A DNA stretch of 64,000 nucleotides, taken from assembly GCA_964620445.1 (NCBI GenBank), contig CAZUHB010000004.1, positions 45,461 to 109,460 on the forward strand, given 5' to 3'. How positions within the stretch are numbered: position 1 is the stretch's first letter; each line of letters starts with the position of its first letter. The translations under genes were made by a program, and so were the position numbers. The stretch comes from an uncultured Phycisphaerales bacterium. Its GTDB lineage: Bacteria > Planctomycetota > B15-G4 > CAYZWU01. Under the pieces are notes generated by a model that did no database searches, was not told the origin of the DNA, and worked only from the letters and a program-made list of their open reading frames with translations. Of this stretch, positions 4,071-57,568 are shown one piece after another.

Positions 4071-4311
4071 CGTTTTTCATCCTCCGTAAGAAAACGCGGG
4101 TGAGTTGGCGAGAGGAGTATTCCTGCAATCCATAGCGAAATCGGGGAGAGATTCTCGCAACGTGATCGCCAATTTCTCTCGAAAAAGATGGATCTTTCGA
4201 CTTAGATCGGGGGAAACAGCTGCAAATTGGCCGGATAGTTTGACTGATTGATCACAGTTGATGATATAATGAGCAATATTAATAAGTCGACGAATTAGGG
4301 AGTTTCCCCCA

Positions 4312-4833
4312 GTGCAACCCAAAGGCGATCATGGCCAGGACGAAGCGATCTTTCCCTTGGTTTACGAGGAGCTTCGCGCCCTGGCCAAGCGCCAGATGAT
4401 CAAGGAAAACCCGGGCCACACCCTGCAGACCACGGCGCTCGTTCACGAGGCCTACATCCGCCTCAAGGAGTTTTCGGGCGCGAACTGGAACGACAAATCC
4501 CACTACCTCCGCGTGGCGGCCCGCGCCATGCGCCATGTGCTCGTCGACCATGCGCGCCGCAAGCGATCACTGAAGAAGGGCGGCAACTGGCGCAAGGTGC
4601 CCTTCGAGGTGGCGGGCGCTTTTCTGGTGGAAACGACGGTCGATCTCATCGCCCTCGACGAGTCGCTCACCAAGCTCTTCGCAGAGGACGAACAGCTCGG
4701 CCGCCTCGTGGAGCTGCGTTTCTTCGGCGGCCTCACCGTGGACGAGACCGCCCGGGTCCTGGGCGTCTCGCCCCGCACGGTGAGCAACGACTGGCGCATG
4801 GCCAAGGCCTGGCTCCGCGACGAGATGGAATAG
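4312..4833 (+). CDS. ECF-type RNA polymerase sigma factor (TIGR02999 / planctomycete-type)
   Basis: Motifs LVYEELRALA, TLQTTALVHEAYIRL and VELRFFGGLTVDETARVLGVSPRTVSNDWRMAKAWL. Confidence 0.92.
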   Translation: MQPKGDHGQDEAIFPLVYEELRALAKRQMIKENPGHTLQTTALVHEAYIRLKEFSGANWNDKSHYLRVAARAMRHVLVDHARRKRSLKKGGNWRKVPFEVAGAFLVETTVDLIALDESLTKLFAEDEQLGRLVELRFFGGLTVDETARVLGVSPRTVSNDWRMAKAWLRDEME

Positions 4834-4842
4834 TCGATCCTG

Positions 4843-7449
4843 TCATGGTGTGGGAGGCAGGGACGCGGCCGGCCGCACCCCGTAATCGAAGAATCGGTTG
4901 CTCGAACTGGTACTGGACTGGAAAGAGGATCGGCTGTTTTCAGCCCAGCAGGCCCAGCTCCCGCCCCGGAAGACACGGTTCAATGATCCGCCGAAAGTTC
5001 CGTCATCGTCGAGAAGACTCTTGTCCGGCAGAACACCGTCCTGACACCACTCCATCACATTTCCCATGACGTCGTGAAGGCCGAAGGGATTGGGATCGAG
5101 ACGACCGACTGGTTGGTGCACGGCATAACCGTCCTCCCAATCCTCGCAGGGATTCTTGTAGGCATCATATGATCGGCAGGTTTTGTCGCGAACATTGGCG
5201 GCCCGCTTGATGCTTTTCTCGACATCGCCCGTCCACCAGGTCGTGGTTGTACCAGCCCGGATCGCGTACTCCCACTCCGCCGCGGTCGGAAGGCGCAGAT
5301 CGACGCGGGGTAGAAGGGCCGCGCAATCATCCCAGCTCACCATCTCCACCGGATTGAGGAGGGAGATTATCTGATCGGCCCGATTCTGACCGGCCTTCAT
5401 CTGGCTCGGATTCTGGCCCGCGATCCGGAGCCACTGCCCCTGGGTCATCTCGTACTTCGAGAGAAAGAAGGGCTCGAGCACGTGTTCGCGTTCCGACTCG
5501 GCGGTCTTCAATTTCCCCCCCGGAATCAGCACGAACACCAGCCCGCACAGGTCGGAAAGCTGGAGTCTACCGTCTATGTCGCGTGCGGGAATCGTTCCGG
5601 TCCGCAGGTGGGCGAACTCGAAGAGCCCCGAGTTCGGATCCGCGCCGAGGGGCACGAGACCGATCGTCGGTTCGATCGTGAGGCCTCCGTAACAGGGAAA
5701 CCGCGTCTCGTCGGCGATAGAGGCGATGGCGCTGTCCCACGCGTCGCGATGGTCATCGATGCTTTTCTTTGTCACTGTCCGTGCGAAGATCCAGCGCTCC
5801 CGAACCTTGCCGGCCAAGCCCTTGTCCGGGTCGACGAAGGCTTCCAGCTTTTCGACCAGCGCTGTGAGAATGTCGTGCTGCCACTTGATCTTGGGATCGT
5901 CGAAAACCCACAGGCGGCGCTTGAAGATGTCCGCCTCGAGTTCGTCGATCATCGTCACCATCGGGTCGAAATCGTACTTCATTTCCTTCATGCTCTGGAG
6001 CTGCGCCTTTGACCCGCCCTTGCCTTCGGCCTCGATTCGGGTCTGGAGGTCCGACATACGCTTTTCGATGTCGACGCGCTGTTTCTTCAAGTGAACGTAG
6101 GTGGCCCACATCGGGTGGGATTCCCTGTCCCTCTGCTTTATCGACTCGTCGTAGGTCAGAGCCTTTTTACGCAGCCTATCCAGGGTGCGGCGGTGCACGA
6201 CGAGCCGGCCGGCGAGTTCCTCGGCGCTGTCGATCCAGGATTCGAATCCGGCCAACTTTCGAGGATGGGCCGGATAAAGGATCTTCTCCGATTTTTCGAG
6301 ACGCGCGAGGAGCGTCACGTCGGAGAGGCGAGTGATCTCGGCATAGGCTCTCAATATCCTTTCCCTTTCGGTCTTGAGCTGGGGATAGGCAAAGAAGAGC
6401 ATATAGCTTAAAAACCCTGTCAATGCGGCAAGCACGAGAGTGGCCGCTGCGCTCACCACGGGGTTTCGGCGCGCCCATTTCCAGATCCGCTCGAGCGCGC
6501 CGGCGGGCCTTGCGAGAATCGGCTTTCCGTCCAGATAGCGCCGGACGTCGTCCGCAAATGCGGCCACCGAACCGTAGCGGTTCGATCGTTCTTTCTCCAG
6601 AGCTTTTAGTACGATCGTCTCCAGATCACCGTGCAGGCCGGCATCGATTGCCGAGGGCTTTCGGGGAGGGCGGTCTATGATGATGCCGGCCGCTTCGAAA
6701 ATCGCCGCTCCCTGCAAGTCGTAGGGGAGGCGTCCACAAAGGAGTTCGAAGAGGAGCACCCCGAGGCTGTAGACATCGCTGGTGAAATCGATCTTTTCCG
6801 GATCAGCCTCGCACTGCTCGGGCGACATGTACTGCACCGTGCCCACGAGCTGTCCCACGGCCGTATGCATGGTGGTGAGAGCGATGTCCGCGTCGAGGGC
6901 TCGCGCGACGCCGAAATCGATGACCTTCACCTTCGCATGGGGATCAACGAGGATGTTGTTCGGTTTCAGATCGCGGTGGAGGATGCTCTTCTGATGGCCA
7001 TGCTCCACACCGCTACAGGCTTTCAAGAACAGCTCGAGCCGTTCCCGGCGGGAGAGGCCCTCGTCGCGGGCGAAATCAGTGATCGATCGCGCGTCGGGAA
7101 CGTACTCCATCACCAGATAGGGAATGCCGGCGTCACTTTCATCGGTCACGACTCCATCGGGGCAGTGGGTTCCGGCCTCGATCACCTGGGCGATGTTGGG
7201 ATGGGAGAGCTCGGCCAGGATCTGCGCCTCGTAGGCGAAACGCCGCTTCTGGGCAGCGCTGGCCGCCAGTTCCGGTCGCATCAGCTTGACAGCCACACGG
7301 CGTTCCGTGCTCTCCTGGACAGCCTCGTAAACAAGACCCATCCCGCCTGAGTGCAGAGGCCGGACGATCCTGTACTGGCCGATCCGCGCGAGAGGCGGCA
7401 TGGCCGGTCTCGGATCCAAAGTCGGATTATCTTCGCCTGAGTCTATCAT
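4843..7449 (-). CDS. Membrane Ser/Thr protein kinase with C-terminal FGE-sulfatase (SUMF1/EgtB/PvdO-like) domain
   Basis: SGGMGLVY, VAVK, HRDLKPNN, DFGVA, GTVQYMSPEQ; one TM segment; FFLSKYEMTQGQW, LPTAAEWEYAIRAG, NPFGLHDVMGNVMEWC, RGGSW. Confidence 0.92.
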   Translation of the reverse strand: MIDSGEDNPTLDPRPAMPPLARIGQYRIVRPLHSGGMGLVYEAVQESTERRVAVKLMRPELAASAAQKRRFAYEAQILAELSHPNIAQVIEAGTHCPDGVVTDESDAGIPYLVMEYVPDARSITDFARDEGLSRRERLELFLKACSGVEHGHQKSILHRDLKPNNILVDPHAKVKVIDFGVARALDADIALTTMHTAVGQLVGTVQYMSPEQCEADPEKIDFTSDVYSLGVLLFELLCGRLPYDLQGAAIFEAAGIIIDRPPRKPSAIDAGLHGDLETIVLKALEKERSNRYGSVAAFADDVRRYLDGKPILARPAGALERIWKWARRNPVVSAAATLVLAALTGFLSYMLFFAYPQLKTERERILRAYAEITRLSDVTLLARLEKSEKILYPAHPRKLAGFESWIDSAEELAGRLVVHRRTLDRLRKKALTYDESIKQRDRESHPMWATYVHLKKQRVDIEKRMSDLQTRIEAEGKGGSKAQLQSMKEMKYDFDPMVTMIDELEADIFKRRLWVFDDPKIKWQHDILTALVEKLEAFVDPDKGLAGKVRERWIFARTVTKKSIDDHRDAWDSAIASIADETRFPCYGGLTIEPTIGLVPLGADPNSGLFEFAHLRTGTIPARDIDGRLQLSDLCGLVFVLIPGGKLKTAESEREHVLEPFFLSKYEMTQGQWLRIAGQNPSQMKAGQNRADQIISLLNPVEMVSWDDCAALLPRVDLRLPTAAEWEYAIRAGTTTTWWTGDVEKSIKRAANVRDKTCRSYDAYKNPCEDWEDGYAVHQPVGRLDPNPFGLHDVMGNVMEWCQDGVLPDKSLLDDDGTFGGSLNRVFRGGSWACWAENSRSSFQSSTSSSNRFFDYGVRPAASLPPTP

Positions 7450-7450
7450 G

Positions 7451-10249
7451 TCACTCCAGAGACGCGGCAGGCCGGCAACCGAGCAGAGGCGAATTGTTCA
7501 CGGGACGCTCAAAACTGCGACCGGCGGAGGTACAGCCCAGGGCGGACTGTTGCCAATTGCCTCCCCGGTTCATTCGCTTTATCGTTTGTGCCGACAGATA
7601 GACGGAGCCATCTGCCGGTTTGGTGTTATAGGTGGAAACGTAATTGTCCTGACACCATTCCGACAGGTTGCCGCAAACATCGTGGAGGCCGAACGGATTG
7701 GGAAGATAGGCGCCCACCGGTGCGTGCACCGCGTGCCCATCATCCCAAGCCTCGACACCGCTCGCGTCCGGATCGAAATGCGTCCTGAATCGCTCGTCCC
7801 TGAGATTGACCTTGCCGGCAAGGCTCGAGGCGTCGTTTCCCATCCACCAGATAGAGGAAGTTCCGGCCCGCGCCGCATATTCCCACTCCGACTCCGTCGG
7901 CAACCTGAGGCCCAGACGGCCGAGAACGTCGGCGCAGTCGTTCCAGCTGACCATTTCCACCGGATTGAGAAGGCTGAGCCGCTCGCTTTCGAAATCGGCC
8001 GCGGGTCCGAACCGGCTAGGATTTTCACCTGTAAAACGAAACCATTGAGCCTGGGTCATTTCGTACTTGGAAAGAAGAAAGGGCTGAATCGCGACCGCAA
8101 GGAGCGGTTGGGTGGTGAAGCTCGCTCCGGGATCGACGTGGGCCGAACCGAGGGGGTGCTCCTCCGACGGGGGAATGGCTCCCATCTTGAATGAACCGCC
8201 GGGAATCAGGACGAAGACGAGACCGGTCTCCTCCGTGATGGCGAGGCTGCCGTCAGGGCCGCGCTCTGGAATCTCCCCCGTCTGAAGATGGGCGAACTCC
8301 CACAGCCCCGTGCGCGGATCTTGTCCGAGGGGAAAGAACCCGGCCTTCTGTTTCACGGTCAAACCGCCATACTGCGGGCAGAGAGCTTCGTCGGCAATGG
8401 ATGCGGTCGTCTCTTCCCAGGCGGCCCGATGCTTCGCGAAATCCTTTTCGAGCCTTCTCGCAGATTCGCGTCTCTTCAAGATGTCCCGGAGCAAGCCCTG
8501 GGCGGGATCTTTCAGCGCATCGAGCCCTTGCGTCAGGTCGGCGAGGACATCGTGCTGCCACCGGCGTTCCACCTTCTCGAATTCCCAGGTGCGGTACCGG
8601 GCGATCTCTTTCTCCAGCGCGCGGATCCGGTCTCTTGTCCGTGCAAGGTGCCCTTTCAATCCGGCAGTAGGATCCGAAAGGAAACCTTCTTCCTCGAGCT
8701 CCGCGATTCTTTTGGAAAGCTTTTTTTCCGTTGTACGCAGCGCCACGAGTTCGGGCCAGTCGCGGTGGCTTTCGCGGTCCCGCTTCCTGGCGGCCTCGTC
8801 GTAGGACTGGGCGTCCGACCGAAGAGCGTCAAGGGTGCGGCGATGGACGGGGCCGCGGTCGAGGAGCTGCTCGGCCTGATCGATCCAGGTGTTCAGGTCT
8901 CCGATCCGGACGGGCAGAGCGGGCCAGAGTGTTTCGGCTTGTGCCACGAGATTGGCGAGCTGCTTCATGTCGGCGAGGCGCAGGATCTGGTCGTAGGCTT
9001 CGGTGGTCTTGTTTTTCTCCGAAAGGATTTTTGGATAGGACCAGAGCAGCACGTAGCCGATGATTCCCACGACAACGATCATGGCCGCACAGATCGCCGG
9101 GTTCTTGAGCGCCCATTTGCGGAGTTTTCTCGATAATCCCGCGGGCCTGGCCTTGATCACCTTTCCGTCCAGGAAGCGGCCGATGTCGGCCGCGAGCTCG
9201 TCCGCGTTCTGGTAGCGGTGCTGGCGGTCTTTTTCAAGAGCCTTCAGAATGATCGTTTCCAGGTCCCCTCTCAGGGATTTCTTGACGAACGATGGTTTCT
9301 CGGGGGCGACTTCGCAGATCCGCCGCGCCGCTTCGAATACCGTCGTGTTTCGAACCTTGTAGGGGAGTTTGCCGCAGAGCAGCTCGTAAAGGACGACGCC
9401 GAGCGAATAGACATCGCTGCGGATATCGAGGCTGTCCGGATCAGCCTTGCACTGCTCGGGCGACATGTACTGGACCGTGCCGATGAGCTGGCCCGCTTCG
9501 GTGTGGGCCGCGGTGAGGGCGATGTCCGCATCGGCGGCCCGCGCCACGCCGAAGTCGATGACCTTGACCTGCCCGTGAGCGTCCACCAGGATGTTGCTCG
9601 GTTTCAGATCCCGGTGGATGATGCCCGCGTTGTGCCCGTGGTGCACCGCGTCGCAGACCTGGAGAAAGAGTCCGAGCCTCTGCTTCAGGCTCAGTCCGTT
9701 TTCGAGCACATGGTCGGTGATGAGAACCGCGTCGGGAATGTACTCCATCACGAAGTAGGGGATACCTGTTTCATCTGCTCCCGATCGGGAGATCGTATCG
9801 TGGAAGCCGGCATCTATGACCCGGGCAATGTTCGGATGTCTGAGCTTGGCCAGGATATAGGCCTCGTACTCGAAACGGCGCTGGATCGATCCGAAGAGGA
9901 GTCCTTTCTTCAGCATCTTGACCGCCACCGTGCGCCGCGGATCTTCTTGCTCGGCCTCGTAGACCGTGCCCATTCCGCCGGAAGCGATGGTGCGCTTCAG
10001 GATGTATTTTCCGATCCGCGATCCGCGATCGAGCCGCTCCGGCTCTTCGGGCCGCAGCGCGGAGACGACGGGGGCGTCCTCGAGGAAACAGTTTTTTTCC
10101 ACCCCGAAGGCGAGCATCCTCTCCACCTTGCGTCGCAGCCGGGTGTCGCCGCCGCAGGCACCGTCGATAAAGGCGGCGCGCTCACCGGGCGGGCGTTCCA
10201 TGGCCGCATTGAAAATCTCCTTGAGGCGTTGAAAGAAATCGCTGGCCAT
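7451..10249 (-). CDS. Membrane Ser/Thr protein kinase with C-terminal FGE-sulfatase domain (tandem paralog)
   Basis: SGGMGTVY, HRDLKPSN, DFGVA, GTVQYMSPEQ; TM segment; LPTESEWEYAARAG, NPFGLHDVCGNLSEWC. Its stop is separated by 1 nt from the downstream kinase start. Confidence 0.92.
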   Translation of the reverse strand: MASDFFQRLKEIFNAAMERPPGERAAFIDGACGGDTRLRRKVERMLAFGVEKNCFLEDAPVVSALRPEEPERLDRGSRIGKYILKRTIASGGMGTVYEAEQEDPRRTVAVKMLKKGLLFGSIQRRFEYEAYILAKLRHPNIARVIDAGFHDTISRSGADETGIPYFVMEYIPDAVLITDHVLENGLSLKQRLGLFLQVCDAVHHGHNAGIIHRDLKPSNILVDAHGQVKVIDFGVARAADADIALTAAHTEAGQLIGTVQYMSPEQCKADPDSLDIRSDVYSLGVVLYELLCGKLPYKVRNTTVFEAARRICEVAPEKPSFVKKSLRGDLETIILKALEKDRQHRYQNADELAADIGRFLDGKVIKARPAGLSRKLRKWALKNPAICAAMIVVVGIIGYVLLWSYPKILSEKNKTTEAYDQILRLADMKQLANLVAQAETLWPALPVRIGDLNTWIDQAEQLLDRGPVHRRTLDALRSDAQSYDEAARKRDRESHRDWPELVALRTTEKKLSKRIAELEEEGFLSDPTAGLKGHLARTRDRIRALEKEIARYRTWEFEKVERRWQHDVLADLTQGLDALKDPAQGLLRDILKRRESARRLEKDFAKHRAAWEETTASIADEALCPQYGGLTVKQKAGFFPLGQDPRTGLWEFAHLQTGEIPERGPDGSLAITEETGLVFVLIPGGSFKMGAIPPSEEHPLGSAHVDPGASFTTQPLLAVAIQPFLLSKYEMTQAQWFRFTGENPSRFGPAADFESERLSLLNPVEMVSWNDCADVLGRLGLRLPTESEWEYAARAGTSSIWWMGNDASSLAGKVNLRDERFRTHFDPDASGVEAWDDGHAVHAPVGAYLPNPFGLHDVCGNLSEWCQDNYVSTYNTKPADGSVYLSAQTIKRMNRGGNWQQSALGCTSAGRSFERPVNNSPLLGCRPAASLE

Positions 10250-10842
10250 GAATCGGTCTCTTACCGGTTTGGACCGCGTACGGTCCCGATATGATCTACT
10301 TCACCTCGGCCTATTCTACTCGATCTGTTGCACGGCCGTACGACCGAATCATTCATCGGACAGCCGAACCGCTGCGACCATATATTAAGCGAAGAGCGGG
10401 CTCGGCCGTGGCAAGACAAAATATGCCGGAAGCCGTCACGACAAACCGGGCGCCCTTTGGAGAACGCGGTTTCGATCGATCACCGCGTTGCCGAGGCGCG
10501 AAATAATCGGGCGACAGGTTCGGTCACCCAACGATCCAAAAACATATAAAAAACTTAATCCAAGTGCGACCGATAGGTTCTAATTCAAGCACAGAGGTAC
10601 ACCGATTCAGGAGTATTAACACTGCTGTCGTTGATTTGATCGGTATCCATCGCCGCAGGTGATTTTTCCGGCGACCGCCGATTCGTCCCACACCGTGAAT
10701 TTCGCAGCAGAAGACAGCCCACCATACAGAAGAGACGCTCTAAGGATTGCGTGGAAACAGATACGTATTGGGACCGGATCGGAAGAAGGGAGGTTTACTG
10801 ATCAATCCGTGAAGGCTATTCGGTGGCACCCGATTTCATGGC

Positions 10843-25713: not shown

Positions 25714-28700
25714 TTGAAATCGGCATATCGAGACGCACCGCTGCCTGGCGCAAGAGCCGGTATTTTCCTGATCGTGGCGAGCCTCTTTCTCGTCTCCGGC
25801 GCGACGGGGCTGATCTACCAGGTCGCGTGGACCCGCCTGTTCACCACTGTTTTCGGCAACACCACCCATGCGGTGAGCGCGGTGCTCACCTCTTTCATGG
25901 CCGGGCTCGGCCTGGGCAGCTACTACTTCGGCAAGATCGCCGACAGGCAGAGACGCGTTCTGCTGACCTACGCGCTGCTCGAGGTGGGGATAGGCGTCGC
26001 GGCGCTGCTTCTGCCGGCGGGGGTGGAGTCGGTCGAGAGCATCTATGCCGGCCTGTACAGGACCTTTCCCTCGTCGCTCTGGATTCTCACCCTGGCGAAG
26101 GCCGGCATCTCGTTCCTCTTTCTCCTCGTTCCCACCTTCCTCATGGGCGCGACCCTGCCCGTGCTCGGCCGGTTCGTGGTCAGCCGTGTCGGCCAGGTGG
26201 GTTCGCGCGTCGGACTGCTCTACGCGGTCAACACGCTCGGCGCCACCCTCGGCTGCCTGATCACCGGTTTCTGGCTGATCGAGCACTTCGGCGTGAAGGG
26301 AACGATCCGCGTGGCGGCGGCGGCCAACTTCGGCCTGGCGCTCTGTTTCTTTCTGCTCCACCGTCTCGGCGGACGGGCCGGCGCGCCGATCGATTCCGGC
26401 GGGACCGAAGAGGCGGACAAGAGCACCATCGAAGAGTCTCTCTCCACCGACCGCCGGCGGATCGTGCTGCTCGCATTCGGTCTGGGCGGTTTCTGTTCTC
26501 TCGCCTACGAGGTGCTCTGGTTCCGCGTTCTGGTCTTTCAGCTCAAGACCACGGTCTACTCCTTCTCGCTCATGCTCGCCGCCATGCTTACGGGCATCGC
26601 TCTCGGGAGCGCGCTCTTCTCCGCGATCGAGGCGCTCTTCGGCCGCTCGGACCGAGCCGCGCCGCGCGATGGCGGGCGGTACTGGCCCCTCTTCGGTTAC
26701 GTCGAGGCAGCGATCGGTCTGCTCGGCATCGTGTCGATCCCGCTCTTCGGCCGGCTCGAAACCTGGTCCGACACATTGAGCCAGAGCTCCTTCACGGGAC
26801 GGATGTTCTGGACCTATGTGATGGCCGGATGCGTCATGTTCGCGCCCGCCCTTCTCATGGGGGCGGCCTTTCCGGTCGTGTGCCGCATCTGGTCGCGGAG
26901 CGCGTCAACGATCGGCGCGTCGGTGGGAACGGTTTATGCCGCCAACACGGTGGGTTGCATCTTCGGCCCGATCGTGACCGGTTTCTTCCTCGTTCGCGCC
27001 CTGGGCACGCAGTGGTCGATCATGGTTATCGCCCTGGTCAACATCGCGGTGGCGGCCCTGGTTCTCCTGAAGGAGCGGTCGCTGAAGCACACGATCGCTC
27101 TCGGCTGTATCGTCGGCGCGGCTCTGGCCGGGGTCGTTTCCATTCCCGGAAACCTACTTTTCGAGTATTTCAACGTGGGGGAAAAACTCCTCAACAGCCA
27201 CGTGAAGATCCTCTATGCCCACGAGGGAGTGGAGTGCATCACGACGGTGCACCTCTATCCCGATCAGAACCGGGTGATCTCCACCGGATCGATCAACGTG
27301 GCCGGGACACCGCTCACGCTGCGAACGACGCAGAAGCTGCAAGCCCACATCCCGCTCCTTCTCCACCCCGCGCCGAAGGAGGTGTGTCAGATCGGCTTCG
27401 GCAGCGGCGAGACCTCGCACATCGTCACCTCTTACGACGTGGATCGGCTCGATCTGGTCGACATCAGCGCCGGCGTTCTCGAAACGTCGGCGCGGTTCTT
27501 CGACGATATCAACGGCGGCGTGGTCGACCATCCCCGATTCAACGCGATCATCATGGATGGCGCCAACTACCTGCGCGTCACGGACAAGACCTACGATATC
27601 ATTCTGAACGACGCCACCTGGCCCTACCTGTCCGGCTGCAACGCGCTCTACACGGTCGATCATTTCGCCGCGGGCAGGGCGCGGCTCAAGCCGGGCGGCA
27701 TCATGACGAGCTGGTTCCCCCTCGACCTGGCGATCGAGGATTTCCAGATCCTTCTCAAATCGTTCCATCACGTCTTTCCCCATGTGCAGCTCTGGGTCGG
27801 GATGACCCATCGCAACATGCACTCCCTCGTGGCCGGATCGATGGAGCCCTTCTCGATCGACGCGAGCCGTTTTCTTCGGAGGTTCGGCCGATATGCGTGC
27901 TCTGATCTGCGCAGCGTCGATCTCGACGATCCCGCCCTCTTTCTGAGCAGCCTCGTGATGGATCAGGACGCGCTCGGTCCGGAACTGGACAACCTCGGCC
28001 TGAACACCAACGACACACCCATCCTGGAGTTCGCCGAATCGAGAATGAGCCGCAGGGGGACCTCTGCCAACGTGCTCCCGTCGTTTCAGTACATGAACCG
28101 GAAGCGGGCGTCGATCCTGCCCTGTCTGCGCCACGTGGAGAAGCTCGGCGGGGCCGCGCGGGACTTCGTGAACGATATCGACGCGGCCCAGCGCGCGGCG
28201 GGCCACATGCTCTCGGGGCTCATCATGCGCGAGGTCGAGGACAGGCGTTTCGTCGCCGAGATCGAGCAGGCGCTTGCCGTCTACCCGAACCATCCGGGCG
28301 CGCTCCGAATCCTGAAAAAGATGCACCGCCTCGCCACCCTCGACACGAGCAAGTACCGGCGGATGAGCCCCCTCGATCTGCTCAAGACGGCAGAGGACCT
28401 CTTCCGGTCGGGCGCCTTTGCCAAGGCCGAGGAAGTTCTCGCCATCGGGATCGAAAAGGACCCGAACGATCACCATCTCCTCTACCTGCTCGGCGTGGTC
28501 CTCGTCAGGCAGGAGCGCCATGCCGAGGGCGTGGCCGTTCTTCGCAAGGCGGTGCGCATCGAACCCGACCTCGCGCCGCCCTGGAACAATCTGGGTGCGG
28601 CGCTCGTTTCGATGGGCGAGATCGACGCCGGAATCGGCGCCTATCGAAAGGCGCTCGCCATCGATCCCGAGTTTTTCGGCGCCCTCAACAATCTGGGCAC

Positions 28701-28941
28701 GGCGCTCGTGGACAAGGGCCGCATCGAGGAGGGGATCGTGTGCTACAGGAAAGTTCTCGGCCGCAAACCGAACATGGCCGAGACCCATTATCTCCTCGGC
28801 CTTGCCAACGAGAAGAAGGGCCGGATCGACGACGCGATCCGCTGCTGCCGGAAAGCCCTTGCCATAGAACCGGCGCCGCGCCTCGATCGGGCCGCCGTGC
28901 GCGCCGCGCTCGATCGCATGCGTGAGGCAAAGAATCGTTAG
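25714..28941 (+). CDS. Fused MFS-like membrane domain / spermidine synthase-like SAM-binding domain / TPR protein
   Basis: LFLVSGATGLIYQVAWTR N-terminus, many TM helices, IGFGSGET SAM-binding motif, DGANYL, C-terminal TPRs. Confidence 0.88.
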   Translation: MKSAYRDAPLPGARAGIFLIVASLFLVSGATGLIYQVAWTRLFTTVFGNTTHAVSAVLTSFMAGLGLGSYYFGKIADRQRRVLLTYALLEVGIGVAALLLPAGVESVESIYAGLYRTFPSSLWILTLAKAGISFLFLLVPTFLMGATLPVLGRFVVSRVGQVGSRVGLLYAVNTLGATLGCLITGFWLIEHFGVKGTIRVAAAANFGLALCFFLLHRLGGRAGAPIDSGGTEEADKSTIEESLSTDRRRIVLLAFGLGGFCSLAYEVLWFRVLVFQLKTTVYSFSLMLAAMLTGIALGSALFSAIEALFGRSDRAAPRDGGRYWPLFGYVEAAIGLLGIVSIPLFGRLETWSDTLSQSSFTGRMFWTYVMAGCVMFAPALLMGAAFPVVCRIWSRSASTIGASVGTVYAANTVGCIFGPIVTGFFLVRALGTQWSIMVIALVNIAVAALVLLKERSLKHTIALGCIVGAALAGVVSIPGNLLFEYFNVGEKLLNSHVKILYAHEGVECITTVHLYPDQNRVISTGSINVAGTPLTLRTTQKLQAHIPLLLHPAPKEVCQIGFGSGETSHIVTSYDVDRLDLVDISAGVLETSARFFDDINGGVVDHPRFNAIIMDGANYLRVTDKTYDIILNDATWPYLSGCNALYTVDHFAAGRARLKPGGIMTSWFPLDLAIEDFQILLKSFHHVFPHVQLWVGMTHRNMHSLVAGSMEPFSIDASRFLRRFGRYACSDLRSVDLDDPALFLSSLVMDQDALGPELDNLGLNTNDTPILEFAESRMSRRGTSANVLPSFQYMNRKRASILPCLRHVEKLGGAARDFVNDIDAAQRAAGHMLSGLIMREVEDRRFVAEIEQALAVYPNHPGALRILKKMHRLATLDTSKYRRMSPLDLLKTAEDLFRSGAFAKAEEVLAIGIEKDPNDHHLLYLLGVVLVRQERHAEGVAVLRKAVRIEPDLAPPWNNLGAALVSMGEIDAGIGAYRKALAIDPEFFGALNNLGTALVDKGRIEEGIVCYRKVLGRKPNMAETHYLLGLANEKKGRIDDAIRCCRKALAIEPAPRLDRAAVRAALDRMREAKNR

Positions 28942-29062
28942 CGCGACAGGGAAGCGGAAAAAAAGTACCCATCAGATTCGATATTTTTGATAAAATAAAA
29001 ACGGAAGCCTTCAGATTATTTTCGGTTCTGCTTCGCGGCAACGATTCGGAAAGAGGTGTGTC

Positions 29063-30382
29063 ATGAAAGCGATCGCGACAGCTGTTGTGGGCGTACTGAT
29101 CTTCATCTGCACCGGGCCGGTCTCGGCCGACACGCCCGATATCGAGGAAGCGGTCTACATATACGACGGCTCCGATCCGATGGAAGCGTACAAGACCCTC
29201 GTGCCTGTTGCCGTCGACTGGAACAACGACGGATTGAAGGACCTCGTGGTCGGCCAGTACACGGACGGTTACATCTGGCTCTATCTGAATCAGGGGACCG
29301 ATATCAATCCCGTTTTCGACGGGGGCACGCTCATCGAATCGAACGGCGCACCCATCACGACGTCCTACTACTGATGTCTCGGATCGAGTCCGCGAGTAGT
29401 GGACTGGAACGGCGACGACAAGAAGGATCTCATCACGGGCGAGCGCGACGGTTATATCCGGATCTACCTGAACACCGGAAGCGACGAGGCCCCTGTCTTC
29501 AGCGGCTACACATTTCTACTGGTTGACGGCCTCATCTTCGACTGCGGCCTCTCGTCGATACCTGACGTGGTCGACTGGAACAACGACGGCCTCTTCGACC
29601 TGCTGTGCGGCGAAGACGACGGAAAGGTCTATCTTCTTCTCAACAGCGGCAAGTCGAAGGATCCTCTCTTCGAATCCGCCGCGTTCATCCGGAAGGGAGG
29701 AGGAGACCTGGATGTGGGTTCCCTCGCCAGTCCCACGGCGGTCGACTGGAACAGGGACGGCAAAAAGGACCTGATCGTCGGAGAGCTGAGCGGCTACCTG
29801 AATTATCTCGAAAACGTGGGAACCGACGAGGAACCCCTGTTCGTCAGCTCATCGCTCCTTCGCATCGACGGGGTCACCATAGACGTGAGCTACGACGCGC
29901 ACCCCGATGCCGTCGACTGGGACAACGACGGCGTGATCGATCTCGTCTGCGGATGCCGCGAGATCATTGACGGCAAGGTGCTCTATTTTCACTCCCGCGG
30001 CCCCTTGTGGGTGAACGGGAACACTCTCTCCAAGAGCAGCGGCGGCGATATCGACTTCGCGTTGAACGGCGGGGGGGGCAATGCCGGCCGCTACTACTTT
30101 CTCATGGGTACGAACGAGGGAACCGAGCCGGGCTACACCCTGCCCGGGGGCGCCATCCTGCCGCTGAACTGGAGCTGGGTGTCCACCTATATTTTCAACA
30201 ACTACAACACCTACCCGCTGACCCGTTTCCGCGGTTCGTTCGACATTCTAGGCAAGGCCACGGCGTCGCTGCACGTTTCGTCGCCGCCGCTCGCGGTGGG
30301 CACGATCCTTCACTTCGCCTTCACCACCGAGATGCCCTACGACTACCAGTCCAATCCCGTTTCGATCGAGATGTTGCCCTGA
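29063..30382 (+). CDS. Secreted FG-GAP/VCBS repeat protein with in-frame UGA (predicted Sec104-Cys105), 439 aa
   Basis: Track ORFs 29063-29374 and 29399-30382 are in the same frame. TGA at 29372-29374 lies inside repeat 2 (ITTSYY*CLGSSPRVVDWNGD). Five 'P..VDW(N/D).DG..DL..G' repeats span the TGA, and only the first part carries a signal peptide. Confidence 0.8.
29375..29405 (+). promoter_or_regulatory. Bacterial SECIS-like hairpin
   Basis: Stem AGTCCGC (29387-29393) / GTGGACT (29399-29405), 7 bp with one G-U; loop GAGTA starts with G after a 19-nt spacer from the UGA. Confidence 0.7.
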
Positions 30383-30539
30383 CCCGCCCCCTTTGTGCTT
30401 GCAGCGCGAACGCCTCGAGAGTAAAAAGAGAACAGGGGATCGGAAGATCTCTGGGGATTTAAAACAGGCGAATTCAGAGTCGCGAATGCCAGGTCGGCGT
30501 TCGGTCACAGGGAAATCTGTTCTCGAGCGGGAGGAAACC

Positions 30540-32231
30540 ATGGCGATTCAACGTGTGATCTTTTCGAGGTCTCGGTGTGTTTTGGCAGCGGCCGTTCTGA
30601 TGCTGTGTGCGCAAGGCTTTGGCGCGCCGGCAGATCTTCCCGTTCCGAAGGTATCGGAGTTTTCATCGGAGAAGATCCTGACCGCTCTCAACGGGACGAG
30701 CAGCGACTACTTCGGATATTCCGTCGCCATGACGGAGGAACTCCTGGCCGTCGGGGCCCCGGTATGCGATAGCATCAACACCCAGAGCGGCGGGGTCTAC
30801 ATATTTCGTCTCGACCCCGCGTCCAAGGACTGGATCGAGGAGGTCAAGGTCAATGCGTCGGACGGCATGAGCTTCGATTTCTTTGGCGGTGCTGTCGCGC
30901 TCTCGGGCGAACTGCTGCTCGTGGGCGCTCCCGGAGACGATGAGCTGTCGAGGGGCAGTAGCTACCAGGACCTCACGGGAGCGGTCTACGTCTATCGGTA
31001 CGATTCCGGATTGAAAAGCTGGGTGGAGGAGGCGAGGCTCGTGCCCAAGGCGAGGGTGGCTCAGGGCAGATTCGGTTTCTCGGTCGCCCTCGAAAACGAC
31101 CTGGCATTGATCGGCGCTCCGGGCGAAAGCTCCGATGGACTGGCAAGCGCCGGCGCGGCTTATATCTTCCGCCACGACCCTGCCACCAAGACATGGAGTG
31201 AAGAAGGACGGCTGCAAGCCGCTGCGCCGGGGGAGGAGGCCGAGTTGGGTCACTCCGTTGCGGTCTCCCAGGGGGACGTCATCGCCGGCGCGCCGGGCGA
31301 CAGTGAAAAGGCTCTCTCCGCGGGATCGGCCCACCTGTTCGGCAGATCTCTTTCCGGAACCTGGTCGGAACAGCTCAAGCTGACCGCTTCCGATGCGGCT
31401 GAGGGGGATGAGTTCGGTTCCTCCATCGCCATCTTCAACAAGGTTGCGGTCGTGGGCGCCTGGAATGACGACGACCGCGGTTTCGATTCGGGGTCGGCCT
31501 ACGTTTTCCGCCAGGCCGGTTTCAGCGGCTGGGCAGAGGAAGCCAAGTTGACCGCCGACGACGGGGGAGCCGAGGACGAGTTCGGTTGTTCCGTGGCGGT
31601 CGCGAAGAACGTCGTCCTCGTCGGCGCGCGGAACGACGATGACCGCGGCGATTATTCAGGTTCCGTCTACCAGTTCGCCTACGACCCAAAGGCGTCCAAG
31701 TGGACGAGGGGAATGAGAATACTCGCCCGGGACGGAAGCCAGGACGCACGTTTCGGCCACGCCGTCTCGACGACGGAGAAGATAGGCCTGGCGGGAGCCT
31801 GGGGTGACAGCAACGGTCGAGGCGCCGCATTCATGTACGACTACGAGCTGGCCACGGCTCCCCATATCGACCTGAAGATCAACGGCCTTCGCCAGAAGGT
31901 GGTCGTCAAGCGGGGAGAACCGGTGATCGTCGATTTCGAGATCGACCCGCGGCGATCCCTCGTGTCTCCGACCGAGGTCTGGGTCTGGTTCGACAATCCC
32001 ACACCGGAACGGTTCGCGTACGCCGGAGGTGAATGGCACTGGGACGACTGGAAAGAGAGCCCATACAATTCGGGACGAGGGCTCTATTTCTGCGCGGAGA
32101 GGTTGAATCTCTCCTCACGGCTGCTCGGCGACTACCAGGTGTGGGTCGGTATCGAACCGCTCGCGGACAAGTCTTTCACCGCGCCGTTCTTTTTCGCCGC
32201 CACCAGAGTCGACTACCAGGTCATACCCTAG
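30540..32231 (+). CDS. Secreted FG-GAP repeat beta-propeller protein with shared C-terminal domain
   Basis: GAGG RBS; about seven 'FG.SVA....L.VGAP..D....GAAY.F' repeats; C-terminal 'PHIDLKING' module. Confidence 0.87.
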   Translation: MAIQRVIFSRSRCVLAAAVLMLCAQGFGAPADLPVPKVSEFSSEKILTALNGTSSDYFGYSVAMTEELLAVGAPVCDSINTQSGGVYIFRLDPASKDWIEEVKVNASDGMSFDFFGGAVALSGELLLVGAPGDDELSRGSSYQDLTGAVYVYRYDSGLKSWVEEARLVPKARVAQGRFGFSVALENDLALIGAPGESSDGLASAGAAYIFRHDPATKTWSEEGRLQAAAPGEEAELGHSVAVSQGDVIAGAPGDSEKALSAGSAHLFGRSLSGTWSEQLKLTASDAAEGDEFGSSIAIFNKVAVVGAWNDDDRGFDSGSAYVFRQAGFSGWAEEAKLTADDGGAEDEFGCSVAVAKNVVLVGARNDDDRGDYSGSVYQFAYDPKASKWTRGMRILARDGSQDARFGHAVSTTEKIGLAGAWGDSNGRGAAFMYDYELATAPHIDLKINGLRQKVVVKRGEPVIVDFEIDPRRSLVSPTEVWVWFDNPTPERFAYAGGEWHWDDWKESPYNSGRGLYFCAERLNLSSRLLGDYQVWVGIEPLADKSFTAPFFFAATRVDYQVIP

Positions 32232-50440: not shown

Positions 50441-50671
50441 ATGAAAGTCACCATTACCTACTGCGGTGAATGAAACTACGAACCGAGGGCCGCCGGTCTG
50501 GCAGGCTCGATCCAGAAAGAACTGAACCTCTCCGTCGATCTGATCCGCGGAAGCGGCGGTATTTTCGACGTTGTCGCCGATGGACGCGTCCTCTTTTCCA
50601 AGTTCGCCGTCGGCCGTTTTCCCGAAGAAGCGGAGGTCATCGAACCTCTGCGGAAGCTCATCACCCAGTAG
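50441..50671 (+). CDS. Rdx family (SelW/SelT/SelH-like) selenoprotein, CxxU, 76 aa
   Basis: AAGGAG RBS; translates MKVTITYCGE-U-NYEPRAAGLA...GSGGIFDV...LFSK...GRFPEEAEV; TGA at 50471-50473. Absent from the ORF track. Confidence 0.92.
50474..50508 (+). promoter_or_regulatory. Bacterial SECIS hairpin of the Rdx gene
   Basis: GGGCCGCC-GGTCT-GGCAGGCTC with a one-A bulge. The loop follows a 21-nt spacer and its GGUCU resembles the apical sequence of the E. coli fdhF SECIS. Confidence 0.8.
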
Positions 50672-50678: not shown

Positions 50679-51227
50679 ATGGTCGAGAAGCGAATCGTCA
50701 TCGAGACGCACGCCATCCTGTGCAAGTCAAAGAGAGTGAAGAAGAAGCTCCTGGCGGCGCTCCGCCTGGTGGAGAAGGTCGTCAACGGCCGCGCCTTCGA
50801 GAGGCAGGTCATCGGCCACACCTATCACGACGGCAAGCGCCGGATCCGGGGCTACCACATGTGCGACCTCGCGCCCGATGAGGTCTACGAGAAGATCATG
50901 TCGGGCGCCGATCTCTACACGCCCGCTGACGGCGATTTCGACATCAGGTGGAAGGTCAAGAAGCGTTCCCTTTTCTGGAGGATCACCTCGAACACGATCG
51001 GGTATACCTATCCGTTTTCGCGGACGATCAACACGTACGAGTGGTTCATCAAGAAGCGTCGCCCCCCGACGGTCGCCGGACACCTCATGCACGAGTATCT
51101 GCACAACTGCGGTTTCGTGCACGGCGCCGGGCGGAGCAAGCTGCGCAACCGGTCGGTACCCTATGCGGTCGGCTACATGGTCAAGAATATCGCCTGGTCG
51201 ATTTACAGGGGTGGAAACGACGAGTGA
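50679..51227 (+). CDS. Small basic zinc metalloprotease-like protein (HExxHxxGxxH)
   Basis: HEYLHNCGFVH followed by SVPYAVG. Confidence 0.75.
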   Translation: MVEKRIVIETHAILCKSKRVKKKLLAALRLVEKVVNGRAFERQVIGHTYHDGKRRIRGYHMCDLAPDEVYEKIMSGADLYTPADGDFDIRWKVKKRSLFWRITSNTIGYTYPFSRTINTYEWFIKKRRPPTVAGHLMHEYLHNCGFVHGAGRSKLRNRSVPYAVGYMVKNIAWSIYRGGNDE

Positions 51228-54680: not shown

Positions 54681-56222
54681 ATGGAGAAGAGCATGGCACT
54701 CAATAGATCAGCCGTGATAGTCGTCTTTCTGGCCGGCATTTTGTCGATCGCCTGGGCCTTGCCGGAAGAAACCGAAAAGAACACCTTTTTCCCCGCCTGC
54801 ACAACACCCGAGGAAGAGGGCATCGATTCGGCGATTCTCGTCGAGATGATCAACGAGATCACGAGGCTGAACGCCGACCTTCACAGCATCATCGTGATCA
54901 GGAACGGCCGCTGCGTTCTGGAGAGTTACGTCTTTCCTTACGGTCCGGACGAGACTCACAACCTCAAGTCGATCTGCAAGAGCATCATTTCGGCCCTCAC
55001 CGGAATCGCCCTGCGCGACGAGGTTCTGAAGAGCCTCGACCGGACCGTGGCGAGCTATTTTCCCGGCCTTCTCGAGGGGGAGAAGGATGCCCGCAAGAAG
55101 GCGATCACCTTGCGCCATCTGCTCACGATGACCTCCGGGATCCGGCTCGACGAGGAAGGGCCGGCCATGACACGCATCATCAACAGCGACGACTGGATCA
55201 AGAACACTTTCGACATTCCCCTGGTGGCCGATCCCGGCACGACGTTCACTTACAGTTCGGCGCTGGCCCACACCATGTCGGTGATCCTCTCCAAATCGAG
55301 CGGCAAGAGCCTGCTCGCCTACGCGAAAGCCGTTCTCCTGGAGCCGCTCGGCATCGAGACCGAGAAGGTTCTGTGGACCACCGACCCGAAGGGTTATCAC
55401 TACGGGGGGAGCGAGCTCTGGCTCACGCCGCGCGACCTGGCCAGGTTCGGCTGGCTCTACCTGAACAAGGGAGATTGGTACGGAAAGCAGATCGTCCCCG
55501 CCAAGTGGATCGAAGAATCGACCACCAACCACCTGAAGGAGGGCACTCCGATCCAGTACGGTTACTGGTGGTGGCTCGTGCCTGGCGGCAGCTACGCGGC
55601 CAAGGGGTGGGGCGGCCAGGTCATCGCCGTGATTCCGGACCAGGAAATGGTCGTGGTCATCACCGGCGCCGATCATGGACTGCCCTCGAGGCTCATCCCG
55701 CCCTACGTGATTCGCGCCGTTCTGTCGGACGATCCCCTGCCGCCCAATCCGGAGGCGTGCCAAGCTCTCGATGAAGCCGTCAAGAAGCTCGCCGCTCCGG
55801 ATTCGAAACCCCCGGCGGAACTCCCCGAAATCTGCATGAAGATTTCCGGAAAATCGTGGGAGCTCGAGCAGAACCCGATGCAGTACGAGAGCGTCGGACT
55901 CGAGTTCGACGAGAAATCGAAAACGGAGTGCACCCTGGTCGTGGGGACCCCGAACGGACCGGTTCGGTTCAAGGTGGGACTCGACGATGTCTACAGGATC
56001 ACCACGACAGGAAACCTGGGAAGCAAACCGGCACGCAATGCGTGGGCCATGAAAGGCGGATGGAGGGACCCGGAGGCATTCAGTCTCGACGCTCACGAAA
56101 TGGGGAGTCCCTTGCACATCAAGCTCGATCTTCGATTCAAGGACGACCAGCTCGAGATCGTCGGTTCGTCCAGGCCTCAGGGGCGGCTCTTTTCCCTGAA
56201 GGTGAAGGAATCAGGGGGTTAA
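54681..56222 (+). CDS. Serine hydrolase (beta-lactamase class C / NylB-like), secreted
   Basis: SxxK motif (KSICKS), FTYSS, YGYWWW, AKGWGGQ. Confidence 0.88.
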   Translation: MEKSMALNRSAVIVVFLAGILSIAWALPEETEKNTFFPACTTPEEEGIDSAILVEMINEITRLNADLHSIIVIRNGRCVLESYVFPYGPDETHNLKSICKSIISALTGIALRDEVLKSLDRTVASYFPGLLEGEKDARKKAITLRHLLTMTSGIRLDEEGPAMTRIINSDDWIKNTFDIPLVADPGTTFTYSSALAHTMSVILSKSSGKSLLAYAKAVLLEPLGIETEKVLWTTDPKGYHYGGSELWLTPRDLARFGWLYLNKGDWYGKQIVPAKWIEESTTNHLKEGTPIQYGYWWWLVPGGSYAAKGWGGQVIAVIPDQEMVVVITGADHGLPSRLIPPYVIRAVLSDDPLPPNPEACQALDEAVKKLAAPDSKPPAELPEICMKISGKSWELEQNPMQYESVGLEFDEKSKTECTLVVGTPNGPVRFKVGLDDVYRITTTGNLGSKPARNAWAMKGGWRDPEAFSLDAHEMGSPLHIKLDLRFKDDQLEIVGSSRPQGRLFSLKVKESGG

Positions 56223-56227
56223 CCGGA

Positions 56228-57568
56228 GTGTCGTCGAAGAAGTTCGATTCCCGGAAGCAGACCGAAGCGATTCTGGAAAGTGTTGCCGACGGAGTCTTCA
56301 CCGTGGACCGCGACTGGCGGATCACCCTCTTCAACCGGGCCGCGGAGGAGATCACCGGTATTCGCAGCAACGAGGCTGTCGGCCGTTACTGCTGGGAGGT
56401 GCTGCGCGCCAGCGTGTGCGAGAACGACTGCGTCCTGCGCCGCACCATGGAGACGGGCCGGCCGCTCGTGAATCTTCCGATCTTCATCGTGCGGGCCGAT
56501 GGCAAGCGGATTCCGATCAGCGTCAGCACCGCTCTGCTGAAGGACGCCTCGGGAGAGATCCTCGGCGGGGTGGAGACCTTTCGCGACCTTTCGCTCGTGG
56601 AGGAGCTCCGCCGCGAACTGAAGGAGAGCCGCTCCCTGGGCGACATCGTGAGCAAGAATCCCAAGATGATCCAGCTCATGGAAATCTTGCCGCGCATCGC
56701 GGAGAGCGAGAGCACCTTCCTCATCGAGGGCAAGAGTGGCACGGGAAAGGAGATCTTCGCACGCGTGGCCCACGAGCTGAGTCCTCGAGCGCGCAAACCG
56801 TTCGTGGCGCTCAACTGCGGCGCCCTGCCCGACGAACTTCTCGAGAGCGAGCTCTTCGGTTACAAGGCGGGCGCTTTCACCGACGCGCGCACCGACCGAC
56901 CGGGCCGCTTCGCTGCCGCCCAGGGGGGGACGCTTTTTCTGGACGAGATCGGCGATGTGTCGCACGCCATGCAAGCCAAGCTCTTGCGCGTCTTGCAGGA
57001 GCGGCAGTACGAGCCCCTCGGATCGACCGAATCGGTCGACGTGGACGTTCGCATCATCGCGGCCACGAACAAGAACCTGAAGAGCCTGGTGAAAAAAGAG
57101 AAGTTCCGCGAAGACCTTTTTTACCGGATCAATGTGGTGCGCATGGTGCTTCCGCCTCTGTCAGAGAGGAGGGAAGATATTTCGCTCCTGGTGGAGCACT
57201 TCGTGGAGCGCTTCAACAGGCTCCAGTCCCGCCACATCCACGGCGCCACCCTCGAAACCTTGTCCGTCCTTACGCGCCACGACTGGCCCGGCAATGTGCG
57301 CGAGTTGGAGAACGCGATCGAGCACGCCTTCATCCTCTGCCGGGGAGACTGGATCGAGGCCAAGCACCTGCCCGAGCAACTCGTCCCGGAAGAGACGACC
57401 CAGTCGGTGGGTGGCGGATTGACTCTCGCAGACCTCGAGGCCCGCGCAATCAGCGAGAGTCTGGAACGGAACGAATACAGGCGCATGGCCACGGCCCGCG
57501 AACTGGGTATCGACAAGAACACGCTGCGGCGGAAGATTCTCAAGTACAACATTCCTCTACCACACTAG
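56228..57568 (+). CDS. PAS-domain sigma54-dependent transcriptional activator (bEBP)
   Basis: PAS (ADGVFTVD), [44 protein letters not shown], Fis-type HTH. Confidence 0.92.
   Translation: MSSKKFDSRKQTEAILESVADGVFTVDRDWRITLFNRAAEEITGIRSNEAVGRYCWEVLRASVCENDCVLRRTMETGRPLVNLPIFIVRADGKRIPISVSTALLKDASGEILGGVETFRDLSLVEELRRELKESRSLGDIVSKNPKMIQLMEILPRIAESESTFLIEGKSGTGKEIFARVAHELSPRARKPFVALNCGALPDELLESELFGYKAGAFTDARTDRPGRFAAAQGGTLFLDEIGDVSHAMQAKLLRVLQERQYEPLGSTESVDVDVRIIAATNKNLKSLVKKEKFREDLFYRINVVRMVLPPLSERREDISLLVEHFVERFNRLQSRHIHGATLETLSVLTRHDWPGNVRELENAIEHAFILCRGDWIEAKHLPEQLVPEETTQSVGGGLTLADLEARAISESLERNEYRRMATARELGIDKNTLRRKILKYNIPLPH

Follow-up and report, generated by a model that had tools for sequence, protein, structure and literature searches.

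An in-frame UGA in an FG-GAP propeller gene points to a candidate new family of exported selenoproteins

In a 64-kb stretch of DNA from an uncultured Phycisphaerales bacterium (the window), two open reading frames (ORFs) that share one frame on the forward strand, 29063-29374 (103 aa) and 29399-30382 (327 aa), together encode an FG-GAP repeat protein cut in two by a stop codon, which raises the question of whether they represent a damaged gene, two genes, or a single gene in which UGA is read as selenocysteine (Sec, U). A preliminary description of the window, made from the letters of the DNA without database searches, had favored the last of these possibilities, proposing a single frame broken by one TGA, an expanded loop at the site of the break, a downstream half devoid of its own signal peptide and of a clear ribosome-binding site, a downstream Sec insertion sequence (SECIS), and a second, canonical selenoprotein in the same window; it had also suspected that the family was new. 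These proposals are upheld by the analysis described here, and the idea of a Sec-containing, exported 439-residue protein draws support from the conservation of the TGA, from a hairpin that follows it, from relatives that carry Cys in its place, and from a signal peptide. We consider it very probable that 29063-30382 is one gene for such a protein, and place slightly more confidence still in the selenoprotein reading of the split gene taken by itself, as judged from comparative evidence.

Translation of the window DNA yields a single frame of 439 codons plus a terminal TGA stop (29063-30382, +), whose sole internal stop is the TGA at 29372-29374, codon 104, within the sequence ...GAPITTSYY-TGA-C-LGSSPRVVDWNGDD. 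The next codon, TGT (29375-29377), encodes Cys105, which would be the vicinal partner of the predicted Sec (U104) and which aligns with the first Cys of a CxxC motif in relatives that have only Cys. A Shine-Dalgarno-like AAAGAGG (29050-29056, +) lies 6 nt before the ATG, and no consensus for a sigma-70 promoter or an intrinsic terminator was found in 28800-30700. The GC content at third codon positions (GC3) is 0.73 upstream of the TGA and 0.81 downstream, and codon-position GC is coding-like on both sides. In agreement with the expanded loop noted previously, tblastn gaps reveal that the loop of repeat 2 that precedes its P-x-V-V-D-W strand is four residues longer than that of the other repeats.

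The most direct indication that the stop is not a peculiarity of this genome comes from its relatives. The joined protein, with X set at residue 104, was used to search 5.8 billion proteins; 102 of the best 120 homologs measured 278-340 aa and covered only the 74-76% that follows the TGA; reciprocally, the N-terminal 103-aa ORF found 82 matches, all of 59-142 aa. Essentially every close homolog is thus broken by gene callers at this point. When the 327-aa fragment was compared with 1.84 billion representatives, most matches were giant VCBS repeat proteins that did not inform on function, and about 20 of the best 150 began exactly at the post-TGA residue. The DNA of 80 loci from species-representative genomes was read directly, by tblastn and by a motif scan of the loop. 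A stop aligned to residue 104 was present across many lineages, and all in-frame stops detected by the motif scan in the loop, over the 80 loci and the window, were TGA (50/50), with no TAA or TAG. Classified by best alignment, 47 of the 80 loci carry a Sec-type loop, 14 a loop with at least two Cys, 10 a loop with one Cys, and 9 a short, Cys-free loop. In an independent sample of 80 further metagenome loci, scanned separately, motif matches had TGA in 24 of 24 cases, approximately 22 of them clearly inside the loop, so that TGA is the sole stop type at about 72 loop sites. The codon at position 104 in homologs, whose tabulation had been suggested in the preliminary description, is thus TGA wherever it is a stop, and most family members are predicted to use Sec.

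Carriers of the gene, among metagenome-assembled genomes, span about ten phyla. They include Phycisphaerales, Sedimentisphaerales and other Planctomycetota; Victivallales and Verrucomicrobiota; Nitrospirota and Thermodesulfovibrionia; Fermentibacteria, Aegiribacteria and Sabulitectum; Stahlbacteria, WOR-3, Sumerlaeota and Eisenbacteria; and Desulfuromonas and Desulfobacteraceae. Fermentibacterota-type lineages and Desulfobacterota are counted among the phyla. Several loci harbor tandem arrays, with five copies in L013 (TGA at 143, 1538, 2917, 4233 and 5632) and two copies each in L023, L049, L060, L062 and L065, and the paralogs in these arrays each possess their own TGA and hairpin. It is of note that one tandem paralog in L065 (4659-4712) has E-T in place of U-C (GGT GAA ACC versus GGT TGA TGT) while retaining the full hairpin (41.8 bits), as if the Sec-Cys pair had been lost there recently.

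The second line of evidence is the hairpin itself, which occupies 29384-29408 (+) and consists of a core stem formed by 29387-29393 and 29399-29405 (AGUCCGC / GUGGACU) closed by the apical loop GAGUA (29394-29398). It starts 19 nt past the UGA, with a stem of 7 bp and a loop of 5 nt whose first base is G, and is encoded by the codons of S-P-R-V-V-D-W. Bacterial SECIS (bSECIS) elements have been described as having a loop of 3-9 nt with G in its first two positions, four or more base pairs in the stem, a spacing of 16-37 nt and a minimum free energy (MFE) of -7.5 kcal/mol or lower (PMC13188914); the core of the window hairpin (-10.0 kcal/mol) falls within all four constraints of that work. The 25-nt hairpin has an MFE of -13.8 kcal/mol (z = -4.58), which was equaled by none of 200 shuffled sequences. 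Of 49 scored sites, 47 have a small apical loop containing G at 17-26 nt downstream of the UGA, and nearly all sites fold alike, as 5'-(A/G)UCC(A/G)C(A/G) - GGU or GAGUA - (U)G(U/C)GGA(U/C)-3', from codons for [S/N/Y]-P-[Q/R]-[V/I]-[V/A]-D-W. In Nitrospirota-type members the hairpin is made from these same codons, with the register displaced by one base (CCAC-GGUC-GUGG).

Comparison among relatives, through covariation and constraint at synonymous sites, makes the main case for this structure. In 42 aligned sequences, 86.9% of cells are paired, versus 27-42% if the partners are slid by 1-3 columns, and three pairs vary on both sides in a compensatory manner. The pair 15-23 is AU in 31 sequences, GC in 6 and GU in 5, and is never unpaired; the change from Val to Ala (GUG to GCG) therefore occurs only together with the Pro codon CCG. 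The hairpin is not a by-product of the peptide motif that it encodes, because other P-x-x-x-D-W repeats pair less: an 8-bp model forms a mean of 6.5 pairs at 48 TGA-linked repeats versus 3.7 at 294 other such repeats from the same loci (Mann-Whitney p = 9e-21), 3.9 at repeats belonging to the same peptide class, and 2.7 at 18 Cys-type loops. The p-values are inflated by the relatedness of the sequences, although protein identity is 33-56% and many phyla are represented. Codon choice follows suit, with the Val codon GTG present in 41/42 TGA-linked and 42/112 other repeats, the Pro codons CCA or CCG in 43/48 and 142/294, and U at the third base of the preceding codon in 43/48 and 82/294. A covariance model built from the genome loci assigns 41.2 bits to the window hairpin and at least 29.5 bits to all TGA-linked sites in the standard register, while other FG-GAP repeats in 571 kb score at most 22.6 bits, with the exception of one recent paralog. 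Among the metagenome loci, which lay outside the training set, the 15 best matches to the model are all located directly after an in-frame TGA-TGY. We infer that the hairpin would act as a bacterial SECIS that recruits SelB with Sec-tRNA(Sec), leading to insertion of Sec at residue 104.

The loop that surrounds the UGA exists in several versions. The majority type, G-U-C-x-G-[AS]-x-P, includes the window protein, where Y replaces the first G; Nitrospirota, Eisenbacteria and L104 have G-U-x-G-[AS]-[YF]-P, and L009 and L010 have C-U-G. Relatives with Cys only (24 loci) carry G-C-x-G-[CA]-F-P, often with a further Cys before it, and may have up to three loop Cys (C-x4-C-x2-C). In the G-U-x-G type, Sec directly takes the place of Cys, as between G-U-L-G-A-F-P (L039) and G-C-L-G-A-F-P (L019, L032); direct U/C pairs are formed by L039 and L104 versus L019, L032, L021 and L029, by the Nitrospirota loci L015 versus L017, and by protein P0068, with Cys at the U position, versus the window. 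Cys is thus found in the homologous loop of relatives without Sec, as the preliminary description would lead one to expect; in most of these, it aligns with the Cys that follows U, within CxxC. In the majority U-C type, Sec immediately precedes the conserved Cys, the second Cys of CxxC having been lost, and there are members in which Sec stands alone, with no neighboring Cys. Sec therefore appears to have been placed in the loop in more than one way; the alignments indicate its recruitment in at least three arrangements of the same loop (G-U-C-x-G, G-U-x-G and C-U-G), and the reactive chalcogen pair in the loop is a conserved feature at the level of sequence. As a whole, the comparisons among relatives show the UGA to be recoded, the hairpin to be the recoding signal, and the site to be selected as Sec or Cys.

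About 3.7 of the 8 SECIS pairs are present even in ordinary FG-GAP repeats, and the signature codons of P-x-V-V-D-W (CCN NNN GUN GUG GAY UGG) may be pre-adapted to form a correctly spaced SECIS hairpin. Such pre-adaptation could be a reason for the presence of Sec in three arrangements of one loop.

What kind of protein would result from read-through? Residues 1-22 (29063-29128, +; MKAIATAVVGVLIFICTGPVSA, followed by DTPD) read as a signal peptide, and reconstructed homologs with an intact 5' end all have comparable hydrophobic N-termini, some with lipoboxes, and carry Sec at residues 96-142. The product is thus predicted to be exported by the general secretory pathway, as had been suggested. 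The Pfam family FG-GAP_3 (PF13517) matches with 63.6 bits against a gathering cut-off of 26.9, and a motif scan locates five Ca-binding-type loops (all +): DWNNDGLKD in repeat 1 (29216-29242), DWNGDDKKD in repeat 2, directly after the Sec loop (29402-29428), DWNNDGLFD in repeat 3 (29573-29599), DWNRDGKKD in repeat 4 (29744-29770) and DWDNDGVID in repeat 5 (29915-29941). Little or no variation affects their Asp and Asn positions in alignments A1 and A8; MAFFT alignments that mixed N- and C-terminal fragments set the fragments on wrong blades and were discarded. The repeats are followed by a subfamily-specific, all-beta C-terminal domain of about 127 aa (residues 313-439; 29999-30379, +) in the AlphaFold2 model, with no match in Pfam. 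In other subfamilies this domain is replaced by a type IX secretion system (T9SS) type A sorting domain, by CARDB, or by TSP3 repeats. Many relatives end in the T9SS sorting domain, which supports an extracellular or surface location, and many of them would be displayed on the surface through it.

AlphaFold2 models were obtained for the Cys form P0068 and for the 327-aa post-TGA part of the window protein. The predicted local distance difference test (pLDDT) score is about 95 for the repeats and 67 for the 10-residue block that contains the Cys/Sec loop, which suggests that this loop is flexible; the 327-aa fragment, with a pLDDT of 94.4, is beta-rich past the propeller. The best Foldseek matches are FG-GAP propellers (BBSome subunits, ITFG2, the integrin alpha propeller plus thigh, PVL, AAL2, CRTAC1, Tc toxin and UmbA4), with TM-scores of only 0.3-0.39. 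Sequence, domains and models are together consistent with a propeller of five FG-GAP repeats that bear Ca motifs and, after it, a beta-sandwich domain. By analogy with integrin FG-GAP topology, U104-C105 would reside in an enlarged, flexible loop that precedes strand 1 of blade 2 and its Ca loop, that is, in a 4-1 loop. The 4-1 loops of integrin-type FG-GAP propellers lie on the ligand-binding face, and the Sec-Cys loop may thus be located on this face.

This placement bears on the question of what the pair does. If the protein is a selenoprotein, we give roughly even chances to a redox or nucleophilic role, in which U104-C105 would form a reversible selenenylsulfide and serve as a reactive center directed toward a bound ligand. 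The alternative that survives best retains the same selenoprotein but takes the Sec-Cys pair to be mainly a site for soft metals or chalcogens (Hg, Cu(I), Cd, As, polysulfide or selenide) in an extracellular binding protein, and is possible, if distinctly less probable than the redox role; the small remaining share of probability goes to some other function. It finds precedent in selenoproteins with CU or UC motifs that are linked to metals or organometals, such as the MerB-like SaoL, HgcA, the CopZ-family GxUC proteins and MbdU (PMC13188914 Table 1; bioRxiv 10.1101/2022.07.06.499078). The presence of up to three Cys in the loop of Cys-type relatives, the location of T9SS-displayed members outside the cell, where no supply of reductant is evident, and a scaffold of the binding type, as in integrins and lectins, point in the same direction; conversely, metal-resistance or transport genes are not conserved nearby, and the lone Sec without adjacent Cys in some members also speaks against it. 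A more specific proposal, which encompasses elements of both and which we regard as speculative, somewhat less probable than either, is that of a surface-located, integrin-like, Ca-dependent propeller whose exposed selenol/thiol pair captures ligands covalently or handles chalcogens or metals outside the cell. If true, this would amount to a 'seleno-adhesin/lectin' acting outside the cell, and no selenoprotein is known to play such a role.

The remaining alternatives deny that Sec is inserted at all. In the first of these, which is very improbable, UGA would be decoded without Sec, either through near-cognate read-through as Trp or Cys or through a locally reassigned codon, with the hairpin merely slowing the ribosome. 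This explanation is favored by the lack of Sec machinery genes in the window and by the fact that selenium incorporation is predicted here from sequence comparison, but it must contend with the bSECIS geometry at 47 of 49 scored sites and with the Cys, rather than Trp, found in the loop of relatives without TGA. It must also contend with the role of UGA as an ordinary stop, both at the end of the 29063-30382 gene and in several orthologs, which excludes a reassigned genetic code. In addition, the window contains the anticipated second selenoprotein, a canonical SelW-like (Rdx family) CxxU gene at 50441-50671 (+), with TGA at 50471-50473 in MKVTITYCGE-U-NYEPRAAG (Pfam PF10262 Rdx, E = 1.1e-16, 61.2 bits for a cut-off of 22.6), whose presence shows, as far as its sequence can tell, that UGA is decoded as Sec in this genome. 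At 13 nt past the TGA of the SelW-like gene, RNAfold predicts a small hairpin (GGGCCGCC / GGC.GGCUC). A direct link between the FG-GAP family and the Sec machinery is provided by gene order in L062 (1-4491, contig CAZUTK010000012.1), where selD is followed by tRNA-SeC (1034-1128) and then directly by two tandem family members with TGA at 1482 and 3175. The selD gene (TIGR00476, E = 1e-103) has an in-frame TGA of its own at L062 7-9, in A-G-U-A-S-K. A tblastn search with SelD and SelW identified no further copies in L001-L080 or the window.

Even less probable is the notion that the TGA is a true stop, yielding a 103-aa secreted peptide and a separately started 327-aa protein, or serving programmed termination. 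Gene callers do split the gene in this manner in every database entry, and a truncated product would be expected of any selenoprotein under selenium limitation. Nevertheless, a functional stop would sever FG-GAP repeat 2; the GTG at 29399 that was taken as the start of the 327-aa ORF is the conserved Val codon of PRVVDW, falls within the hairpin, and is not preceded by a Shine-Dalgarno sequence; and the post-TGA part lacks a signal peptide even though it is an extracellular-type, Ca-motif propeller that is T9SS-tailed in relatives. The restriction to TGA, and never TAA or TAG, at about 72 sites, and the existence of full-length Cys versions (P0068, P0115), also argue against a functional stop. 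Finally, a mistake in sequencing or assembly, or a pseudogene born of a recent nonsense mutation, has nothing in its favor beyond the bare presence of the stop and can be set aside, since three independent assemblies (ENA ERZ23498668, Logan SRR8062346 and ENA ERZ23498639) share an identical 48-mer across the TGA, each with identical 103-aa and 327-aa gene calls, and since the TGA is kept over about ten phyla with purifying selection on both sides.

Several observations weigh against the reading of 29063-30382 as a selenoprotein gene, or against the function proposed for its product. Selenium incorporation at residue 104 is a prediction from comparative sequence. No selA, selB, selC or selD was found in the 64-kb window, and a tRNA scan of the window detected no tRNA, hence no tRNA-Sec; the SelW-like gene is therefore the sole support for Sec competence in this genome. 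With respect to the hairpin, an 81-nt fold around the UGA is indistinguishable from shuffled sequences (z = -0.86), an Rfam scan of the window returned no family at gathering score, and the strict ungapped rule of -7.5 kcal/mol is passed by only 22 of 50 sites, compared to 4% of control TGAs; the relatedness of the sequences behind the p-values, noted above, belongs here as well. The Sec of the predominant U-C type is aligned with a Gly, and not with a Cys, of the CxxC relatives. As to function, the location of the Sec-Cys loop on the ligand-binding face stems from the integrin analogy; Foldseek and a PDB sequence search yielded generic FG-GAP propellers only, with no close structural or enzyme analog; and clustering of the neighbors of 47 TGA loci revealed no conserved family, only synteny among close Fermentibacteria relatives.

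Comparison with known systems places the selenoprotein proposed here in unusual company. Mammalian thioredoxin reductase ends in Gly-Cys-Sec-Gly and cycles between the selenenylsulfide and selenolthiol forms, and the FG-GAP family resembles it in having a vicinal Cys/Sec pair with Gly flanks on a flexible segment, most members being G-U-C-x-G. It differs from the reductase in the order of the pair (U-C, not C-U), in its position within an internal propeller loop (residue 104 of 439), in the absence of a flavoprotein domain, in a bacterial SECIS situated in the coding region and not in the 3'-UTR, and in an extracytoplasmic location, with no partner redox center identified. Membership of the thioredoxin-reductase-type GCUG class was thus ruled out by internal position, reversed order and lack of a flavoprotein domain. 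The thioredoxin-fold UxxC/CxxU class was likewise ruled out, the motif here, situated in a propeller loop, being U-C, C-U or U by itself; the window protein has no thioredoxin-family match in Pfam and its model is all-beta. A further lead is the PQQ methanol dehydrogenase, a periplasmic, Ca-containing beta-propeller in which the vicinal Cys103-Cys104 disulfide forms an eight-membered ring at the active face. The likeness lies in adjacent chalcogen residues on a Ca beta-propeller; the dehydrogenase has 8 blades, pyrroloquinoline quinone (PQQ), Trp-docking motifs and Cys-Cys, and no PQQ genes or motifs were seen here. As regards the scaffold, the integrin alpha head, the fungal N-acetylglucosamine lectins PVL and AAL2, CRTAC1, ITFG2, Tc-toxin TcB and UmbA4 share with the window protein FG-GAP/VCBS repeats with D-x-N-x-D-G-x-x-D loops, and the succession of propeller and beta-sandwich is reminiscent of the integrin propeller plus thigh. 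The window protein is set apart from these by having five repeats instead of seven, by the four additional residues of its Sec/Cys loop, and by the low TM-scores given above.

Among selenoproteins, those catalogued with a Sec/Cys dipeptide (the CopZ-family (2Fe-2S)-binding 'GxUC', MerB-like SaoL 'CU', HgcA 'CU', MbdU 'CU' and KCU-star; PMC13188914 Table 1) employ the same in-frame UGA with a coding-region hairpin directly downstream. As in the FG-GAP family, their Sec stands beside Cys, their genes are typically cut at the UGA in databases, and they have Cys homologs. The FG-GAP family is distinguished from them by its unrelated fold, its export or surface display, and the absence of a metal or organometal gene neighborhood. 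Extracytoplasmic selenoproteins (the TonB-dependent receptor FCYXU, the GSU2204/MtrB-type outer-membrane barrel and DsbA/DsbG-like proteins; PMC13188914 Table 1) demonstrate that Sec proteins can reach the envelope or outer membrane, but have other folds and motifs, and none is a propeller exported by T9SS or a signal peptide. A review of May 2026 compiled 119 prokaryotic selenoprotein families and subfamilies (PMC13188914), and its Table 1 has no FG-GAP, VCBS or propeller entry. No such family is described in the deep-Sep and BSepDB papers or in the eight-new-families preprint, the BSepDB family table itself lying outside this comparison; in NCBIfam release 20, no selenoprotein model matches six diverse members; and full-text literature yielded nothing relevant that ties selenoproteins or selenocysteine to FG-GAP, VCBS, propeller or integrin-like proteins or to the carrier lineages. 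Database names of the fragments, where given, are 'VCBS repeat-containing', 'FG-GAP repeat domain-containing' or 'hypothetical'. The suspicion that the family is novel thus holds for the 2026 catalogue, NCBIfam and the full-text literature: the recoding mechanism is ordinary, and it is the family, the fold, the location and the U-C loop that are new to the catalogues searched.

If the selenoprotein assignment is correct, the family would constitute a large addition to the selenoproteome, extending over about ten phyla, often in tandem multi-copy form, with several genes added per genome, and would call for the correction of hundreds of database entries that are now split into one piece of about 103 aa and another of about 330 aa or more. 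A thioredoxin-like fold is the rule for most known selenoproteins, and Sec in a secreted or T9SS-displayed, integrin-type beta-propeller would represent a new structural and cellular context. A SECIS whose stem is supplied by codons for a conserved repeat motif may, in addition, explain repeated gain of Sec in one loop. The family would also offer a defined target for asking what role selenium plays outside the cell in anoxic sediments.

The genes that surround the selenoprotein gene in the window are diverse. Directly upstream (25714-28941, +) lies a gene for a 1075-aa protein that combines a membrane region resembling the major facilitator superfamily, a spermidine-synthase-like domain and C-terminal TPR repeats, and that is also located upstream in other assemblies of the organism (L081, L082). 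Large FG-GAP_2 (PF14312) repeat proteins without in-frame stops are encoded at 1431-4076 (-) and 30393-32231 (+); the latter gene is immediately downstream of the selenoprotein gene, a pairing that is not conserved in the other loci. The sole other same-frame junction in the window with coding-like GC3 on both sides is the TGA at 51225-51227, which was considered as a further selenoprotein site and rejected, as it looks like a junction of adjacent genes, a 227-aa ORF of unknown function and a CN-hydrolase ORF.

Two further regions merit mention. Two adjacent genes, 4843-7497 (-) and 7451-10300 (-), each encode a Ser/Thr protein kinase domain fused to a C-terminal FGE-sulfatase (formylglycine-generating enzyme-like) domain, and this pair adjoins a gene for an extracytoplasmic function (ECF) sigma factor (4273-4833, +). 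The cluster at 57758-62025 encodes small NifX/NifB-like proteins (identified by eye), a DUF5320-like ORF, two MinD/ParA-type ATPases with 4Fe-4S motifs (58987-59835 and about 59800-60758) and an Mrp/NBP35-type ATPase (60773-61690), and is flanked by two sigma-54 activators (55856-57568, +, and 62195-63583, -).

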